DNA from: an uncultured Rikenellaceae bacterium
Lineage (GTDB): Bacteria; Bacteroidota; Bacteroidia; Bacteroidales; VadinHA17
Assembly: GCA_964526345.1 (NCBI GenBank)
Contig: CAZGKI010000003.1
Coordinates: forward strand, 94,625 to 158,624
Length of the DNA: 64,000 nt
Direction: 5' to 3'
Shown piece by piece: positions 5,490-56,611 of this stretch (within the stretch, counting starts at the first letter, position 1; each line of letters begins with the position of its first letter). The translations under genes were made by a program, and so were the position numbers. Below the pieces are notes generated by a model that saw only the letters and a list, made by a program, of their open reading frames with translations, was not told the DNA's origin and made no database searches.

Positions 5490-5533
5490 AAGTACATGAT
5501 AGTTAAGTCTTTAAAATATAATCTGCCCCCAAT

Positions 5534-5594
5534 CCCTCTGAAGGGGGGCTAATTCAGTGCAGTATCTAGCCCCCCTTCAGGGGGGAACGGGGGG
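5534..5594. repeat. Inverted pair of a C6-TTCA-G6 mini-hairpin repeat unit (ACTGAATTAGCCCCCCTTCAGRGGG family)
   Basis: CTGAAGGGGGGCT (5538-5550) is the perfect reverse complement of AGCCCCCCTTCAG (5568-5580), with a 17-nt spacer. The same unit recurs at 16681-16765. Confidence 0.85.
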
Positions 5595-7002
5595 TTGGTT
5601 CTATGATTTCTGTTTTATAATCAATTCCAGCCCTCGCATCTTCAGGGGAAGCTGCATTACCACATGCTGCCTGTACAAAAAGAGAAGCTCCCAGCACTGT
5701 CGTTTCTTTCTGGTCAATCACTTTTATCGGCACTCCCGTATATGCAGCTCTCAGCCTGTTCCACAACCTGTTTTTTGATCCGCCTCCGACACATACTATA
5801 CTATCGGTTTTAAAACCTCCTGCTGACTCGAGCGCATTCTTTCCTTCAATAAGCCTTTCAGAAAGAGCCTCCAGCATTGCGCGATAAATCTCATCACGAG
5901 TCGATTCCATTGTCAGTCCGAGTATCTGACCTCCGGGTTTCCCCTTCAGCTCTTCATAGAACTTAGGTACTATCTTAATTCCATTTGAACCGGCTGGTAC
6001 TTTCTCCGCACCTGCGATCATTTTCTCATAAACATTTTCTTTAATATCATTGTAAAGGTTTCTCCTGGCCCATTCAAGTATACCTGAGGCAATCCATTGA
6101 TTACCGATATTATACAGTCCGGGACGGGCGTCAAGCTCCGTGGTTATTGACATATCCAGCTGCTCTTTTCCTGATTTACAGGCTTCAGACCTTACCATCA
6201 GGATTTCCCATGTTCCAGAGCTGAGCACCGGCTGATTTTTTTCAGCTCCCGATCCGAATATTGCAAACTGCGTATCGTGTCCGGTGGCAACAACAGGAAT
6301 ACCTGAAGGTAAACCAGTGACCTTTGAAGCTTCGGTTGTAACTTTTCCCGTCACAGTCCCTGCTTCCACTGTATCTCCAAGCTTTTCAGCAGGGAATCCG
6401 GTTTTCCCGAGAATATTATCTGAAAACTTTCGTGAGGAAAGACTTGTCACCATTGAGGTCCCTGCCATTGTTGTATCATTGACCATCTCACCTGTAAGAA
6501 AGAAGGAGAAAATTGACGGCATAAACAAGAACCTGTAACTTTTATCGATAATATCCGGCTTTTGTTCAACAAACCAGATGAGCTTGTTAATTGTATTGAA
6601 AGTAAACGGAAGAACGCCGCATTCTTTATACAGATCGGCCAGAGGGATGTATTTTCCTATATTTGCCATTATCGGGCTGGTCCTTTCACACTGCCATGAA
6701 ATGACCGGATATAGCATCTTCCCTGTTTTGTTAAAGAGTGTTCCATCAACACCGAATGTGGTTACAGTAACTCCCGCAATTTCATTTTTATTGATGTTCC
6801 CAGTAACTTTCAGCGAGGTCTGACACATTTTTCCCCAGATCTCGTCAACATCCCAGATCCTGTAAGAAGGATAGAAGGGATCCGGTTTGGTATTATTAGG
6901 CAGCGATTCTGAAGCAAGAATTATTCCCTTGCTGTTAATGGCAATAACCCTGACGTTTGTCGCACCGCAGTCAAAAACAATTACAATATCTCCTCCCGGC
7001 AT
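5566..7002 (-). CDS. fucK: L-fuculokinase (FGGY carbohydrate kinase)
   Basis: 478 aa. The N-terminus IVFDCGATNVRVIAIN resembles E. coli FucK LVLDCGATNVRAIAVN. It lies in a cluster with fucI. Its last ~9 codons and stop lie inside the repeat at 5566-5594. Confidence 0.8.
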   Translation of the reverse strand: MPGGDIVIVFDCGATNVRVIAINSKGIILASESLPNNTKPDPFYPSYRIWDVDEIWGKMCQTSLKVTGNINKNEIAGVTVTTFGVDGTLFNKTGKMLYPVISWQCERTSPIMANIGKYIPLADLYKECGVLPFTFNTINKLIWFVEQKPDIIDKSYRFLFMPSIFSFFLTGEMVNDTTMAGTSMVTSLSSRKFSDNILGKTGFPAEKLGDTVEAGTVTGKVTTEASKVTGLPSGIPVVATGHDTQFAIFGSGAEKNQPVLSSGTWEILMVRSEACKSGKEQLDMSITTELDARPGLYNIGNQWIASGILEWARRNLYNDIKENVYEKMIAGAEKVPAGSNGIKIVPKFYEELKGKPGGQILGLTMESTRDEIYRAMLEALSERLIEGKNALESAGGFKTDSIVCVGGGSKNRLWNRLRAAYTGVPIKVIDQKETTVLGASLFVQAACGNAASPEDARAGIDYKTEIIEPTPRSPLKGG

Positions 7003-9457: not shown

Positions 9458-9564
9458 CTCTGTGAATCTCTGTGACTTCTCTGTGGTCCTCAGTGCAAGT
9501 TCTTACACCGAGAGCCACAAAGTAAACACAACTTGTCCCGATCTATCGGGAGAGAACCACGGAG
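9458..9564. repeat. CACAGAG-family element: four phased CTCTGTG units, linker, two degenerate units, hairpin, terminal unit
   Basis: CTCTGTG occurs at 9458, 9468 and 9479, and CTCAGTG at 9489 (spacing 10-11-10). Next come the linker CAAGTTCTTA, then CACCGAGAG/CCACAAAG, then the hairpin TCCCGA-tcta-TCGGGA (9536-9551), then CCACGGAG. Confidence 0.9.
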
Positions 9565-13088: not shown

Positions 13089-15077
13089 TTAAAACCAAAG
13101 GCGGAGTTGTAATTTTAATTCGTCTTTATCCTCTGTTATATCTGTATTTCTTAATAGTGTTGTCAATCCATATTTTATTCGGAGCTCTGAAAATTTCCCG
13201 ATCTTCCATTTTATCATTAAATAACTGCGGCTTCCTTCACCAGATAAAGCGGGAATGCTGAAGTTGTAAAGCAGGTCATTCTCATACGTGTAAAGTCTTG
13301 TATCCCAGTCGTCTGTATTGAAGATGCAATATCTGAACCAGAAAGTCAAAGGTAATTGATGAAACCTGTAAATTATATCCTGCATCATCAGCATGCCTTT
13401 ATTACCAGAGGGATCAACAACCTTATAGTCCAGTCGTGTTGCCATTGTGAGGCAATTATTAAGTGTATATTTTACACTTCCTCTTATCGTACGGCTTATG
13501 GTCTCTGCAATTCCTGAAATACCCTGATCTGCCTGGTCATCAAACATTGCATGCCGGTAACTATACAGAAAATCACAGGTAATCTTTTCGGATGGGAGAT
13601 ATTGAATCCTAATTTCATATCTCTTACCCATAGAGGGGAAGCTGCACCTGTACCTTAACCACGGGTAATAGCAAAGATCGCAACCCGCACTGATGAAGAG
13701 ATGCTTTGCTGCCTCGAAAGTAAAATTTCCCAGAATCCCCCTCTCATTATTGTTATGCGAACTGTTACCCGGACCATTTCCGTGGAAGCTGATAAACTCC
13801 CGGGCATAATCCCTGTAAAGAACATTTATTGATAATCTGTCAGATGGCCTTAAGGTTGCCCCTTGTACAACGGCAAAATTATCCATGTTATTTAACGAGA
13901 TTTCACCGTAAAGCAGAATCCTGCTGATCAGGCTGTTGTAATACAATGAGAATATATTGTTTTTTCTGTTATTAAAATCATAAAGGTTTTCAGGATCTGT
14001 AACTTCAGCCAATATGGGAATAGAAAACATAATTGCCGACCATGTCATTCCGATTTTCATTGATGTAAGGTTACATGAGAAATTAAATCCACTGGCCGTC
14101 TCAGAGAGAATATCCTTTTTCAATATCTGACTGGAAGTTGTATGTAAGCCTGTCCGGTAAAGGTTTTCAATATATGTGTAAGATGAATCAGGCCTTAACG
14201 CAGGTGTTGCATCAATTTTATTGTATGAACAAAAGATTGAGAGATCAAATTTCCTGAGACTGAATTCTGCTGCAACACCCCTGAAATAGTTATTCTCATC
14301 AGTTGATGTATAAGGTCTTATTTCATTTCTTGCTGACATATATCCTGGTGAAGTCAGCGACAATCCTGTACGTATTCCTGTATTTATATTGGTCCCCTGG
14401 CCAAAACGGGATGAAAAATCGCCGACTATAATTTTTTTAACCACTCCTTTTCCGGAATAAGATGCATGTGCTGAGAAAAAATCAGGAAGAGGTGGTGATC
14501 CGGTAAAAAATTTTTCTCCCGGGTCTTTTTCGATTGTAAATCCTCCTTCGAAGGGACCGGCCCTAAGCCTGTATTTTGTAAGAAATTTAAGGGATGAGCC
14601 CGATAATGAAGTATCTCTTTCTCCGGGGTTTACGATCAGGTTTGTAAGCAGGGTATTGTTCCATTTTAATGAATCAGGTATATTATCAGCAATTAAGCCA
14701 AACGATATAAAAGGACTTATCATTTCTGCAACGGAGCGATCAAATCCCGGAATGGCTGCTATTTCATAAAGTGAGACTATCTTACCTGTTGTTTGTATAT
14801 AATCTGTCAGTGATTTGATCTGGAAGTCGGAGAGGAAAAAGAGCCTGGAGATCTCGGAAATGGTTCCTGAATTTATGGTTACAGGTTTTTCATATAATTC
14901 GTAAAGCTGTTCAGTCAGCAGTGATGCTCCCTCAGGATCTGTTTCATTGGCTGCCAGTTCCTCCGCAATATCTGTAATTACCTCTGAAACAGCTATTTCC
15001 TGGCATTCTGCACTGAAAGGGAAGAATAGAATTATCATTAAAAAATAATGTAAAATATTTTTGAATAGGTATTTCAT
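13089..15077 (-). CDS. Secreted helix-hairpin-helix domain protein with a C-terminal outer-membrane beta-barrel-like region
   Basis: 662 aa. It has a signal peptide and a ComEA-like HhH segment (IVSLYEIAAIPGFDRSVAEMISPFISF). A long alternating beta-rich region ends in the aromatic terminus ...LRLWF. Confidence 0.6.
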   Translation of the reverse strand: MKYLFKNILHYFLMIILFFPFSAECQEIAVSEVITDIAEELAANETDPEGASLLTEQLYELYEKPVTINSGTISEISRLFFLSDFQIKSLTDYIQTTGKIVSLYEIAAIPGFDRSVAEMISPFISFGLIADNIPDSLKWNNTLLTNLIVNPGERDTSLSGSSLKFLTKYRLRAGPFEGGFTIEKDPGEKFFTGSPPLPDFFSAHASYSGKGVVKKIIVGDFSSRFGQGTNINTGIRTGLSLTSPGYMSARNEIRPYTSTDENNYFRGVAAEFSLRKFDLSIFCSYNKIDATPALRPDSSYTYIENLYRTGLHTTSSQILKKDILSETASGFNFSCNLTSMKIGMTWSAIMFSIPILAEVTDPENLYDFNNRKNNIFSLYYNSLISRILLYGEISLNNMDNFAVVQGATLRPSDRLSINVLYRDYAREFISFHGNGPGNSSHNNNERGILGNFTFEAAKHLFISAGCDLCYYPWLRYRCSFPSMGKRYEIRIQYLPSEKITCDFLYSYRHAMFDDQADQGISGIAETISRTIRGSVKYTLNNCLTMATRLDYKVVDPSGNKGMLMMQDIIYRFHQLPLTFWFRYCIFNTDDWDTRLYTYENDLLYNFSIPALSGEGSRSYLMIKWKIGKFSELRIKYGLTTLLRNTDITEDKDELKLQLRLWF

Positions 15078-15093
15078 TTACTTCTATTTGTTA

Positions 15094-15131
15094 CACAGAG
15101 CTTCACAGAGGGGTCACAGAGGACCACAGAG
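15094..15131. repeat. Array of four phased CACAGAG heptamers
   Basis: CACAGAG occurs at 15094, 15104, 15115 and 15125 (spacing 10-11-10). The array ends 1 nt before the stop codon of the GxxExxY gene. Confidence 0.95.
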
Positions 15132-15132
15132 G

Positions 15133-15504
15133 TTATCTTATGAATCTCCTGATACCGCTTTTAAGTATCATAACATTGAAATTTATAAGTAAACCGATTT
15201 TCTTGTTGGCAAATTTCATATAGGTAAGAATCTGGGCTTCATGAACGGGGTTGAATTCATCAACCACCTTAAGTTCTATTATGACCAGGTTCTCAACTAA
15301 AATATCGATACGGTAACCAAAGTCCAGTTTTATATCCTTATAGACTACCGGAGCAGGTTGTTGTCTTTTAATACTCAATCCAGCCTTACTAAGTTCAAAA
15401 GCCAGGCACTCTTCATATGCGGATTCCAGCAGACCTGGTCCCAGATTTTTATGTACCTCAATTGCACAACCTATTATCACTCTTGTAATTTCGTTTATTT
15501 CCAT
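15133..15504 (-). CDS. GxxExxY protein (PD-(D/E)XK nuclease-fold family, PF13366/TIGR04256-like)
   Basis: 123 aa. GLLESAY is the GxxExxY motif. The segment YRIDILVENLVIIELK fits a D...E-x-K restriction-endonuclease-like core. The gene is flanked on both sides by heptamer arrays. Confidence 0.85.
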   Translation of the reverse strand: MEINEITRVIIGCAIEVHKNLGPGLLESAYEECLAFELSKAGLSIKRQQPAPVVYKDIKLDFGYRIDILVENLVIIELKVVDEFNPVHEAQILTYMKFANKKIGLLINFNVMILKSGIRRFIR

Positions 15505-15524
15505 ACCTGATTATTATTTATTTT

Positions 15525-15602
15525 TCTCTGTGGTTCTCTGTGTCTTTTTATCCGCCGAAGCACCAGCGAAGGCGGATTCTGTGATCCTCTGTGTAAGTTC
15601 TT
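15525..15602. repeat. CTCTGTG x2, hairpin, CTCTGTG x2, TAAGTTCTTC block
   Basis: CTCTGTG occurs at 15525 and 15535. The hairpin is ATCCGCC-N14-GGCGGAT (15549-15576). Then come TTCTGTG at 15576, CTCTGTG at 15586, and TAAGTTCTTC at 15593-15602. Confidence 0.95.
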
Positions 15603-15670
15603 CAAAAAATAGCATCATTCCTGTCCGTTAATTCCGCTTTTACTTTGCTCTATTTTCGGTTAAACTTTTT

Positions 15671-16519
15671 TTATTTTATTATATATACAATAGAAACAGC
15701 TGAGGTAATTCCGAGTCTCTCATGTGATGCAAAACCTAGGTCGAGTTTTAAGGATTTTATCTGGTAACCAAGCCCCATGGTAAAGGATGTATTTTCAGTG
15801 CTGAATCCTCCCTTCAGCCAAAGCTTTTTTGCTGCCTCATACTCAAACCCTGTTCGAATAATGAGTTTTTCACCTGAGCTCATCTCTGATTCAACCCCTG
15901 CAAAAAGCTCTTTGCTGAGATCAATACCGGCTCCGGCCCTTAATGACACCGGCAGGAATGATTTTCTGATAGAATTCGGAACAGGGTTAAACAGATGAAC
16001 ACCAATACTGATTTTGTCAGAAGGCATGAATAAAATGCCGGCTTCATATGTAATTGCCTGGTAATTATCATATTCCCCGTAAGTCTTTTCTGAAAAATAA
16101 TCGATCTGGATGCCGGCAGCAATATTATCGGAAAGGGCCATGCCGCATGCAATGCCTCCCATCTCCCTTCTGAAGTCTGAATACCCGAAATGTGAATAAA
16201 TAAGACCCAGCGATGTCTTTCCGACAGGTAAAATAAGGCCTGCAGTCTTCGTTCCCAACTCATTGATGCCGAATCTGTTTTCGTAGTTGATCCCTATCGA
16301 CAATGAAGTATTATTAGCAAGAGAAGCCTGGTTCCTGAATGATGGCCAGAATCCTTGGCGCATGACGCAAACAGATCCCATTCCTGTTTCTCCGGCACCG
16401 TCAGATACCCTGTATGGGTTGCTTCCGTAAGCGGAAATGGTCAGGAAAATAAAAACAATCGAAACAGATATTTTGTGCAGCGAGAACAACTGTTTCTGGC
16501 ATAAACCACTAAGGTACAA
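15671..16519 (-). CDS. Putative outer-membrane beta-barrel protein (PorQ/PorV-like; uncertain)
   Basis: 282 aa with a signal-like N-terminus and alternating beta-strand pattern. The track start is TTG. A second in-frame TTG at 16489 gives a more typical signal peptide (M-FSLHKISVSIVFIFLTISAYG). Confidence 0.5.
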   Translation of the reverse strand: MYLSGLCQKQLFSLHKISVSIVFIFLTISAYGSNPYRVSDGAGETGMGSVCVMRQGFWPSFRNQASLANNTSLSIGINYENRFGINELGTKTAGLILPVGKTSLGLIYSHFGYSDFRREMGGIACGMALSDNIAAGIQIDYFSEKTYGEYDNYQAITYEAGILFMPSDKISIGVHLFNPVPNSIRKSFLPVSLRAGAGIDLSKELFAGVESEMSSGEKLIIRTGFEYEAAKKLWLKGGFSTENTSFTMGLGYQIKSLKLDLGFASHERLGITSAVSIVYIIK

Positions 16520-16585: not shown

Positions 16586-16765
16586 GGCCATACTACGTAT
16601 GGCCACCCCCTAAAGGGGGTCTAATACTCTGCATTATATATAATTATACTATATTCGTATGCATAATTTTTAATTACTTAAACTGTATTAGCCCCCCTTC
16701 AGGGGGGTCGGGGGGTCGGGGGGTCGTTTCACCCGGTACTGAATTAGCCTGTCTTCAGAGCCTGT
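16586..16765. repeat. Cluster of GC mini-hairpins and two direct copies of the TTAGCCCCCCTTCAGGGGGG-type unit with a (TCGGGGGG) tandem
   Basis: GGCCATAC-tac-GTATGGCC lies at 16586-16604, CCCCC-TAAA-GGGGG at 16606-16619, and CCCCCC-TTCA-GGGGGG at 16692-16707. These are followed by TCGGGGGG TCGGGGGG TCG. A degenerate second unit, GTACTGAATTAGCCTGTCTTCAGAGCC, lies at about 16736-16762. Confidence 0.85.
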
Positions 16766-21307: not shown

Positions 21308-21337
21308 GTATTTTCGGTTTGATACTATTTATTGTTA

Positions 21338-21354
21338 CACGGAGAACCACAGAG
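21338..21354. repeat. Two-unit remnant of the heptamer array (CACGGAG-aac-CACAGAG)
   Basis: TTGTTACACGGAGAACCACAGAG has the same TTGTTACAC prefix as 15088 and 10-bp spacing. Confidence 0.6.
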
Positions 21355-37908: not shown

Positions 37909-38037
37909 CTCCGTGGTCCTCTGTGTTTTTTATCTGCCGAAGCTTTAGCTGAGGCAGACTCTGTGGTTCTCTGTGTAATAATATAAATTGAAGAACTTAC
38001 ACAGAGGTTCACAGAGCAGGCACAGAGATTCACAGAG
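37909..38037. repeat. Complete gene-less copy of the heptamer/hairpin element
   Basis: CTCCGTG lies at 37909 and CTCTGTG at 37919. A T-run precedes the hairpin TCTGCC-N14-GGCAGA (37933-37958). CTCTGTG follows at 37959 and 37969, then a 24-nt AT spacer ending GAAGAACTTA. CACAGAG then occurs at 38000, 38010, 38021 and 38031 (spacing 10-11-10). Confidence 0.95.
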
Positions 38038-56512: not shown

Positions 56513-56611
56513 CACAGAGTTACACAGTGTTTGAACGGAGTTACACGGCTTATCATTAACATAGTAGTCTAACTCTGTGTACAACTCTGTGTAACTCAGT
56601 GTAACACCGTG
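56513..56611. repeat. Gene-less, partly degenerate inverted heptamer element
   Basis: The left arm has CACAGAG at 56513, CACAGTG at 56523, ACGGAG at 56535 and CACGG at 56544. The right arm has CTCTGTG at 56573 and 56585, CTCAGTG at 56595 and CACCGTG at 56605. Confidence 0.85.

Follow-up and report, generated by a model that had tools for sequence, protein, structure and literature searches.

A GxxExxY Gene Enclosed by Inverted Arrays of Phased Heptamers Is One Member of a Composite Element That Recurs in About Eight Bacterial Phyla

A gene of the GxxExxY family, whose product belongs to the PD-(D/E)XK nuclease superfamily, lies packed between inverted arrays of the 7-nt word CACAGAG in a 64,000-nt stretch of DNA from an uncultured Bacteroidales bacterium (contig CAZGKI010000003.1, positions 94,625 to 158,624; "the window" here means the whole of this stretch). 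The locus, at 15091-15605 and referred to below as locus A, represents a widespread composite element in its gene-bearing form. The arrangement is real and non-random, and it extends across a large protein family and about eight phyla, in which both the gene-plus-array unit and gene-less arrays recur. Each clade of the protein keeps company with its own heptamer, the heptamers and the protein are under purifying selection, and gene-bearing and gene-less states replace one another at orthologous intergenic sites. We describe these observations and weigh what they may say about the function of a protein family that a survey of the PD-(D/E)XK superfamily lists as "Unknown" (PMC3424549).

Results

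The gene-bearing locus

On the strand of the gene, the order in locus A is TTGAAGAACTTA-(CACAGAG)2-hairpin-(CACAGAG)2-21 nt-gene-1 nt-(CTCTGTG)4-TAAC, with the two arms tail-to-tail around the gene and their TTA heads pointing outward (Table 1). The four exact units of the downstream arm occupy 15094-15131, and a single nucleotide, 15132, separates them from the stop codon. The small hairpin at the centre of the upstream arm has its stem at 15550-15556 and 15571-15577 and a predicted DNA folding energy of -8.4 kcal/mol (z -3.5). The AAGAAC linker of this arm occurs on the upstream side only, in the Bacteroidales subset. A first-pass annotation of the window had listed the features of this locus, and all of them are present at essentially the positions it gave; it had set the ATG 20 nt from the CTCTGTG block, and the block is there, at a distance of 21 nt. 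Such arrays are not what the composition of the window would produce. The window contains 25 exact copies of CACAGAG, whereas dinucleotide-preserving shuffles give 5.0 +/- 2.3 (none of 100 reached 25), and no array of three or more phased units appeared in 50 shuffles of the window.

The product of the gene is a full-length member of both PF13366 (PDDEXK_3; E 5.5e-43, 146.5 bits against a cut-off of 22) and TIGR04256 (E 6.9e-45, 152.2 bits against a cut-off of 35), a family of 23,291 clusters at 50% identity whose members are named in database sources just "GxxExxY protein." All of the motif residues are present (G24..E27..Y30, D67, E77-x-K79, Q91..Y95). The segments G24-LL-E27-SA-Y30, D67, and E77-L-K79 are invariant in 45 homologues, and E27, D67, E77, K79, Q91, and Y95 are invariant. 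In an AlphaFold2 model of the window protein (predicted local distance difference test score 78.5), helices and strands follow the order expected of the restriction-endonuclease-like alpha/beta fold. Foldseek matches to that model were mostly, though not exclusively, to PD-(D/E)XK proteins, and all were weak (best E 0.05); a PDB sequence search with the protein returned no homologue. PD-(D/E)XK is the only family that the protein matched, and it did not qualify as an HUH (Y1) transposase. Its resemblance to Cas4 is weak (PADLOC Cas4, E 3e-4; Foldseek Cas4 family, E 0.05-0.25), and PADLOC and PHROGs gave weak Cas4-like matches only, so nothing points to a known defence system. Some cluster representatives in the set P0121-P0131 are 266-295 aa long and carry two tandem GxxExxY domains, which hints at dimeric action or at the fusion of neighbouring genes.

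Genes and arrays in other genomes

A scan for close relatives of the protein, with one genome per species, returned at least 80 loci from many phyla; with other fetched loci these make a set of 91 genes (individual loci are given L numbers below). A flank was scored when it held at least two oriented heptamers within 120 nt (C[AG]CN[AG]AG upstream, the complement downstream). Heptamers so oriented stand on both flanks of 67 of the 91 genes and on at least one flank of 81, and random positions in the same loci gave the same result only once in 1065 trials. The link between gene and repeat that the first-pass annotation had drawn from the window is thus real and general, with arrays on both sides of most genes in this set. 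The fit between gene and arms is close. From the stop codon to the first downstream heptamer the distance is 0-2 nt in 39 of 77 cases, and from the last upstream heptamer to the ATG it is mostly 14-22 nt. The dominant geometry is 10-11-10 (28 of 37 arms downstream of the gene and 15 of 37 upstream of it), and 9-13-9 or 9-12-9 is seen in other classes. Conversely, when open reading frames (ORFs) lying between a CACAGAG-type arm and a following CTCTGTG-type arm were collected, 43 of 50 proved to be GxxExxY genes; the other seven are host genes between separate elements.

More distant members of the family, sampled from plasmid records and 37-57% identical to the window protein, vary in their surroundings. 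CACAGAG arrays are still present in Bernardetia and Bacteroides finegoldii, and (C/G)GCGAAG units stand upstream of the gene in Sphingomonas; the flanks are a plain 12-nt inverted repeat in Treponema and direct repeats in Prevotella and a fusobacterium. Flanking repeats are therefore a trait of the family, and heptamer arrays are the form that they take in the subfamily of the window protein.

A search for the exact four-unit pattern in species-representative genomes gave at least 120 stretches, in hosts that record titles assign to Bacteroidota, Ignavibacteriota, Chloroflexota, Kiritimatiellota, Verrucomicrobiota, Gemmatimonadota, Alphaproteobacteria, an Alcanivoracaceae metagenome-assembled genome (MAG), and a cyanobacterium. 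Binning errors are possible for single contigs of MAGs; several of the matches lie on contigs longer than 100 kb. Some array contigs have 61-71% G+C, and there the AT-rich word is conspicuous. Among the array matches listed, a GxxExxY gene is present at 7 of 120 loci, mostly abutting the array, and the remaining loci show a doublet without a gene or a lone arm. We counted 103 heads-facing and 76 tails-facing doublet junctions over the full set of loci. Outside two hot-spot sites near a porin-like gene, described below, arms occur at about 44 per Mb, and 385 kb of such sequence contained no further gene. In one alphaproteobacterial MAG (67-71% G+C), two near-identical tails-facing elements (L039, 4641-4819, and L103) agree in their arms, their loop of about 75 nt, and their outer flanks, and resemble recent copies of a single element of the kind known as miniature inverted-repeat transposable elements (MITEs).

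Heptamer class and protein clade

In a neighbour-joining tree of the 91 proteins, clade and heptamer class coincide. CACAGAG accompanies the clade of the window protein (about 64-87% identity to it), CGCAAAG a second clade (52-61%), CACAAAG the Aquimarina proteins (66-68%), CACGAAG those of Planctomycetota (about 62-66%), and CGCAGAG the protein of a Chloroflexia genome (60%). The CACAGAG clade (about 80% identity) and the CGCAAAG clade (52-59%) both occupy one orthologous site in closely related Bacteroidales, and the match between clade and class is therefore not merely a matter of host taxonomy. One locus, L137, carries two GxxExxY genes with two different heptamer classes.

Gene-less copies in the window

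Besides locus A, the window holds two gene-less doublets, loci B and C (Table 1). Locus B consists of two units, a hairpin, two further units, a 24-nt linker ending in AAGAACTTA, and (CACAGAG)4; in locus C the linker is 10 nt long. As the first-pass annotation had noted, the modules of locus A recur in both, with linkers of these lengths and no ORF. Two of its further claims fail. It took the hairpin block to be common to the three loci, and the hairpin of locus C (TCCCGATCTATCGGGA, 9536-9551) belongs to another family than those of A and B. It also regarded B and C as the empty state of A. Both read (CTCTGTG)4-TAA..-linker-..TTA-(CACAGAG)4, with their arms head-to-head; since the arms of A are tail-to-tail, B and C cannot be A minus its gene, and we reject that derivation. 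Strand reversal does not convert one topology into the other, and formally B and C correspond to a junction of the right end of A with its left end. Gene-less elements (solos) with the true empty topology, and decayed genes between arms, are found elsewhere, at 56513-56610 in the window and at L201 and L220.

The hairpins of A and B (15545-15577 and 37927-37958) are 81% alike and differ by a compensatory change of C:G to T:A; the hairpin of C, too, stands at the centre of its arm in place of the 4-nt middle spacer. A palindrome of 18 nt, TCCCGATAGCTATCGGGA, in identical form or with one base changed, stands at the arm centre in four other genomes and two heptamer classes (L127, L139, L209, L216), and the arm orthologous to that of the window in L123 and L204 is without a hairpin. 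Since hairpins occur repeatedly at the exact centre of an arm, that position appears to be marked as a site of breakage or insertion. The DNA of the doublets can fold as an interrupted hairpin or cruciform (z -2.8 to -5.4), as any inverted repeat can. Rfam models run on the whole window gave nothing at the gathering score and no rRNA family, and at E values up to 1 the elements gave only chance matches to microRNA precursors.

Turnover at orthologous intergenic sites

The porin-like gene at 15671-16519 served as an anchor for 25 syntenic loci with the order hpt-purE-porin-[X]-662-aa gene, in which X is the site of locus A. The states of site X (Table 1) are scattered over the host tree, and sister taxa differ: L202 has a four-helix-bundle gene where L205 has a GxxExxY gene, and L204, L207, and L218 show, respectively, a gene, a doublet, and nothing at all. 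L205 and L202 cease to be homologous directly past the initial heptamer of the upstream arm. Profile matches of the four-helix-bundle gene are to TIGR02436 (E 2.4e-22) and PF05635, the "23S rRNA-intervening sequence protein," and the gene is enclosed by inverted arrays of its own, with units of about 14 nt (AAGAACAAACGAAT), as in L202 at 1890-2360, which is orthologous to 15505-15670 in the window. One such unit is similar to the AAGAAC linker found in CACAGAG arms. Decay can be seen in L220, in which a gene remnant between the arms retains residues 89-109 (86% identity, E 2e-10), and in L201, where the space between the arms weakly matches the first 11 codons of a GxxExxY gene. Tails-facing doublets can arise through internal deletion of the gene.

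Occupancy and heptamer class vary across species at two further sites, that between purE and the porin-like gene and that of locus C, where solos are found at the orthologous position in L203, L204, L207, and L214. The presence/absence polymorphism by which the first-pass annotation had proposed to check its reading is accordingly found at three intergenic sites, and turnover at such sites is fast relative to species divergence. No target-site duplication was seen in comparisons of filled with empty sites; the TTA/TAA is part of the arm, because it also faces inward in heads-facing doublets. At the site of locus C, L204 and L207 have the same spacers and differ in that the heptamers have decayed in L207, which is without a CACAGAG-type gene at the porin site. 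This contrast is a lead toward a gene that maintains its repeats; other loci do not bear it out consistently, and no clean pattern emerges.

The same intergenic hot spots contain other short-word arrays (L213, L219, and L220 in the purE-porin gap; L221, L225, L101, L110, L116; L005, L008, L011, L024, L031). Among these are arrays of AGTGCCT type, arrays of ATCTGCG/ATCAGCG type, the latter sometimes as the partner of a CACAGAG arm, and head-to-tail heptamers, like the short tandemly repeated repetitive (STRR) sequences of cyanobacteria, that adjoin CACAGAG arms.

Table 1. Positions of the elements in the window and states of the orthologous intergenic site X
Feature	Position or loci	Strand	Description
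Locus A, gene-downstream arm	15091-15131		on the + strand, TTA and four exact CACAGAG units, 10-11-10 spacing; on the gene strand, (CTCTGTG)4-TAA(C)
Locus A, GxxExxY gene	15133-15504	minus	123 aa, PD-(D/E)XK superfamily
Locus A, leader	15505-15525	minus	21 nt, A/T-rich, between ATG and upstream arm; modal distance among relatives 14-22 nt
Locus A, upstream arm, half nearer gene	15526-15542		two exact units, CTCTGTG on the + strand
Locus A, hairpin	15545-15577		small, GC-rich, at centre of upstream arm in place of the 4-nt middle spacer
Locus A, upstream arm, half farther from gene	15577-15593		TTCTGTG (one mismatch) and CTCTGTG
Locus A, head and linker of upstream arm	15594-15605		TAAGTTCTTCAA; on the gene strand, TTGAAGAACTTA
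Locus B, gene-less doublet	37909-38037		heads facing; between iPGM gene and DUF3109 gene; DNA fold z -5.4
Locus C, gene-less doublet	9458-9564		heads facing, second arm degenerate; between two divergent promoters
Degenerate gene-less doublet	56513-56610		topology as in locus A: CACAGAG-type arm, loop of about 30 nt, CTCTGTG-type arm
Partial arm	21335-21354		TTA-CACGGAG-aac-CACAGAG; position matches arms in relatives
Site X, CACAGAG-type gene	window, L204, L205, L206, L216		
Site X, CGCAAAG-type gene	L203, L210, L211, L214		
Site X, GxxExxY gene, 59% identity	L225		mixed CACAGAG/CACAAAG arms
Site X, four-helix-bundle gene	L202, L209, L221, L224		own inverted arrays
Site X, gene-less doublet	L201, L207, L212		
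Site X, single arm or remnant	L217, L213		
Site X, arms around decayed gene	L220		
Site X, weak CACTAAG remnant or nothing clear	L223		
Site X, nothing	L215, L218, L219, L222		

Constraint on the heptamers, and the choice between DNA and RNA

A position profile was built from 162 arms that had not been chosen by the exact search pattern. Of these arms 85-93% keep the TTA head; conservation is 89-99% at the free heptamer positions 2 and 5, and position 4 is A in 66-73%. The spacers hold 0.1-0.5 bit, except for the second base of the middle spacer (1.0 bit). Comparison of orthologous copies gives the same picture: in heads-facing doublets between purE and the next gene, the heptamers are kept and the spacers differ among six species. 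Between the window gene and its syntenic relatives, synonymous divergence is saturated (pS 0.72-0.97), nonsynonymous divergence (dN) is 0.10-0.14, and dN/dS is below about 0.05; the arms beside those relatives still consist of perfect heptamers. Since heptamers and catalytic residues are kept where spacers and synonymous sites are saturated, these alignments indicate that protein and heptamers are under purifying selection and that the spacers are not.

The element sits where it could be transcribed from outside. In 80 of 86 cases the gene points the same way as the gene upstream of it, and in 70 of 86 the same way as the one downstream (not all of these loci are independent, some being orthologous to one another). 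It often occupies tight intergenic gaps or positions within operons, such as that between fabD and fabG in Sphingomonas, which suggests expression by read-through. Gene-less solos lie between a stop codon and a terminator or between divergent promoters; for heads-facing solos we found no clear bias with respect to the orientation of neighbouring genes, most cases being ambiguous.

These positions bring to mind an explanation at the level of RNA, modelled on the intervening sequences (IVS) of 23S rRNA: the arms would pair in a read-through transcript, RNase III would excise a selfish ORF that has no promoter, and the function of the protein would have nothing to do with the arms. The bias toward co-orientation with the upstream gene is as this account would have it, as is the placing of solos ahead of terminators. 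The heptamers of the two arms are 92% complementary, and sister cassettes at the same site encode the 23S IVS protein family. The IVS of Coxiella, moreover, has a terminal stem cut by RNase III, with tandem heptamers adjoining its ORF (PMC4990558). The composition of the arms argues otherwise. Their spacers are not complementary (4.6 of 10 positions within an element against 4.3 of 10 between elements, p 0.18), and the helices that could form are only 7 bp long, parted by loops of 3-4 nt. Mismatches of G.U type in paired heptamers number 16 in the sense and 16 in the antisense direction, with no strand bias, and these two results weaken the reading of the arms as an RNA stem. The alternation of 10 and 11 in the spacing places pairs of units every 21 bp, two turns of B-DNA with its helical repeat of 10.5 bp. 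A stem would need neither this phasing nor heptamers identical across phyla, and some solos lie between divergent promoters. Since the spacing is helical, the G.U-type mismatches show no strand bias, and the spacers do not pair, these patterns argue that the heptamers are read singly on double-stranded DNA, as putative protein-binding sites, and are not a selected RNA stem. We consider insulation at the RNA level unlikely.

Carriers of the element

The window is ordinary chromosomal DNA, with genes that include adk, hpt, purE, gyrase/topoisomerase IV subunit A, iPGM, obg, and SusD-like genes. Twenty-two contigs, from different samples, encode the identical protein, each time in one and the same context, and the arms are invariant in the 10 of these 22 contigs that were read. 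Among plasmids the pattern is present in 8 of 72,556 records, mostly large replicons, none of them typed as mobilizable. Viral contigs gave two matches, both of them long direct tandem arrays of (CTCTGTGggg)n, a different kind of repeat, in which CTCTGTG units alternate with GC-rich spacers of 3-14 nt (L226, 5657-5825; L227, 9658-10076). We therefore reject carriage by phages or plasmids as a general vehicle, the element being rare on plasmids and not among the viral contigs.

Two further observations concern annotation and other repeats. Read by ORF finders and gene callers, the arrays yield bogus small proteins (e.g., HRASQRGHRGPQR), as at window 15061-15192 on the plus strand and at L234 2887-2991, and such ORFs are a likely source of spurious "hypothetical proteins" in annotations. 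Another repeat family, of C6/G6 hairpins, is present in the window at 5526-5600 and 16590-16730 (GCCCCCCTTCAGGGGGG; GGGGGGTC three times), and a hairpin of G/C runs akin to it is found in L220.

Discussion

The association of GxxExxY genes with their arrays, taken with the match of clade to heptamer, leads us to propose, tentatively, that the nuclease may recognise its own heptamer arrays in a system that resembles either a minimal transposon or the pairing of REPINs (doublets of repetitive extragenic palindromic [REP] sequences) with RAYTs (REP-associated tyrosine transposases). In such a system the heptamers would be the double-stranded DNA binding sites of the encoded nuclease, with several protomers on each arm and the two arms paired. 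The nuclease would then cut at or in the arms, for which the TTA head and the central spacer are candidate sites, and host repair of the breaks would copy, exchange, or delete arms and cassette. The gene-bearing copy could be viewed as the autonomous or "keeper" member, and the gene-less doublets as its dependents, some of them produced by internal deletion of the gene. The first-pass annotation had spoken of a repeat-maintenance enzyme or a selfish unit, and that idea fits the clade-specific heptamers, the purifying selection on them, and the excess of gene-less arrays over genes.

Several observations weigh against this proposal. The heads-facing form, which is the commonest gene-less type, is not simply derivable from the gene-bearing form. 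There is no recognisable target-site duplication, and we know of no strand-transfer activity in a 123-aa PD-(D/E)XK domain. The identical protein is found in one context only, with no sign of very recent movement, and the copies of one genome differ in their spacers, which means that most of them are not recent products of transposition, unlike typical MITEs and REPINs. Distant relatives are flanked by plain inverted or direct repeats and not by heptamer arrays. The covariation of clade and class could also come from the co-descent of a unit that is moved by something else. Finally, the co-occurrence of genes and arrays in the same genomes (at least 8 common to an array sample of about 95 and a gene sample of about 77 out of 185,579, against about 0.04 expected by chance) is confounded, and inflated, by common taxonomy.

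Would a nuclease alone suffice? It would if GxxExxY were a free-standing homing gene that entered arrays already in place, cutting between the arms of gene-less doublets of its own class and being copied in by repair from an occupied copy. Some free-standing homing endonucleases, such as I-Ssp6803I, are PD-(D/E)XK enzymes, and the small nuclease gene and its presence/absence polymorphism at fixed sites are what one sees with homing endonuclease genes. The fit of the gene between the arms is exact (stop codon 0-2 nt and ATG 14-22 nt from them), there are short-looped gene-less doublets of the same topology (the 76 tails-facing junctions), each protein clade has its own heptamer class, and one intergenic site can be occupied by different clades. 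The arms, however, offer just about 40 nt of imperfect homology to the repair that homing needs, and the origin of the gene-less arrays and of the heads-facing form is left without an account. Homing genes usually decay once fixed, whereas this gene is kept under strong purifying selection at a fixed site, and recent spread is not seen. The element differs from homing endonuclease genes also in lying outside any intron or intein and in having flanking arrays that occur gene-less in many places. Homing seems to us an improbable explanation.

It is less probable again that the arms serve an unlinked recombinase or transposase as recombination sites, as in an integron, and that GxxExxY and the four-helix-bundle genes are merely cargo. 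The element contains no strand-transfer enzyme, and the replacement at one site of GxxExxY genes of two classes, or of either by a four-helix-bundle gene, is what such cassettes might do. Yet each arm class goes with one protein clade, unlike the diverse cargo of integrons, the four-helix-bundle cassettes have different arms, and no recombinase is among the 25 of 102 Pfam families listed for the window. That the arrays are nucleoid-organising, terminator-like, or insulator sites under host selection, with GxxExxY as their domesticated binding factor, is also very doubtful: the heptamers are conserved at orthologous gene-less sites despite saturated neutral sites, and the gene, itself under strong purifying selection, clusters with L204 in agreement with the host tree, but occupancy is patchy even in sister taxa, many related genomes have empty sites, and the predicted catalytic residues of the nuclease are kept.

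In the literature library searched, no paper on GxxExxY, PF13366, TIGR02436, the heptamer itself, or heptamer repeats described these arrays or tied them to the gene family; the nearest concerns tandem TAACTGA heptamers, which are unrelated (PMC4679880). The closest likeness to the system proposed here is that of REPINs and RAYTs (PMC3116915; PMC5581495; bioRxiv 10.1101/2021.07.10.451892), in which a small enzyme gene is associated with short intergenic repeats arranged as inverted doublets, there are few copies of the gene and many doublets, the gene is inherited vertically under purifying selection, and each gene lineage has its own class of repeat; inverted copies of the dispersed repeat flank the gene here as well. 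The differences are substantial. The enzyme here is a PD-(D/E)XK nuclease, whereas RAYTs are HUH/Y1 transposases of the IS200/IS605-like type. An arm is made of about four phased heptamers with free spacers in place of a single REP hairpin, the spacers vary among copies in a genome, and doublets are both heads-facing and tails-facing. The system is thus REPIN/RAYT-like without the HUH transposase that defines that family.

The IVS cassettes of 23S rRNA (S23p, PF05635/TIGR02436; PMC4990558) also have a small ORF (about 120 aa) enclosed by terminal inverted repeats, and S23p-family genes stand at the same intergenic site as GxxExxY in L202, L209, L221, and L224. The elements described here lie between protein-coding genes and not in helix 25 or 45 of 23S rRNA, their protein has another fold, with the PF05635 gene in the sister cassettes only, and they have phased heptamer arrays in place of a continuous 28-bp stem.

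The ends of transposons such as Tn7 and Mu carry several phased transposase-binding sites, and one of the cuts made by Tn7 is the work of TnsA, a PD-(D/E)XK nuclease. Inverted ends built from several repeated units and gene-less deletion derivatives are likewise features that our elements have in common with these transposons and with MITEs. The differences are that the 123-aa nuclease is all that our element encodes, with no DDE or other strand-transfer enzyme (nor is any transposase among the Pfam families listed for the window), that no target-site duplication was found, and that the whole element is about 0.5 kb long. With Cas4 and RecB-like nucleases the protein has the core motifs D..ExK..QxxxY in common. 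Cas4 carries an iron-sulphur cluster; the GxxExxY protein is a single domain of half the size, with no CRISPR context. Nothing identifies it as part of a known defence system, nor is the element an integron cassette, its arms being heptamer arrays and not attC sites with core sites, and its cargo nearly always GxxExxY. The tandem TAACTGA heptamers, patchily distributed across phyla in intergenic DNA and with no known mechanism of spread (PMC4679880), resemble our arrays, as do the cyanobacterial STRR sequences, in repeating a 7-nt word in the intergenic DNA of distant phyla. Those repeats are head-to-tail, without spacers or inverted partners, and no gene family has been described for them.

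We would go a step further, and with somewhat less assurance than we attach to the proposal for the window's own subfamily. It is possible that GxxExxY proteins at large, about 23,000 clusters at 50% identity, serve as enzymatic partners to an undescribed, cross-phylum class of palindromic, phased heptamer arrays, each clade reading its own 7-bp word and keeping or spreading its arrays. They would then constitute a second, independently evolved replicator of the REPIN/RAYT kind, related to the cassettes of 23S rRNA IVS and endowed with a naturally varying code of DNA recognition. If so, this would be the first functional handle on a very large family, and it would account for a conspicuous class of intergenic repeats that gene callers mistranslate. 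It would also tie the arrays to the four-helix-bundle cassettes of 23S rRNA IVS, whose origin has been open since the 1990s. Cultured carriers of the element include Aquimarina, Arcicella, Dysgonomonas, Rosettibacter, and Bacteroides finegoldii. If the nucleases do read clade-specific phased heptamers, the family would amount to a natural series of small sequence-specific modules for binding or cutting DNA.

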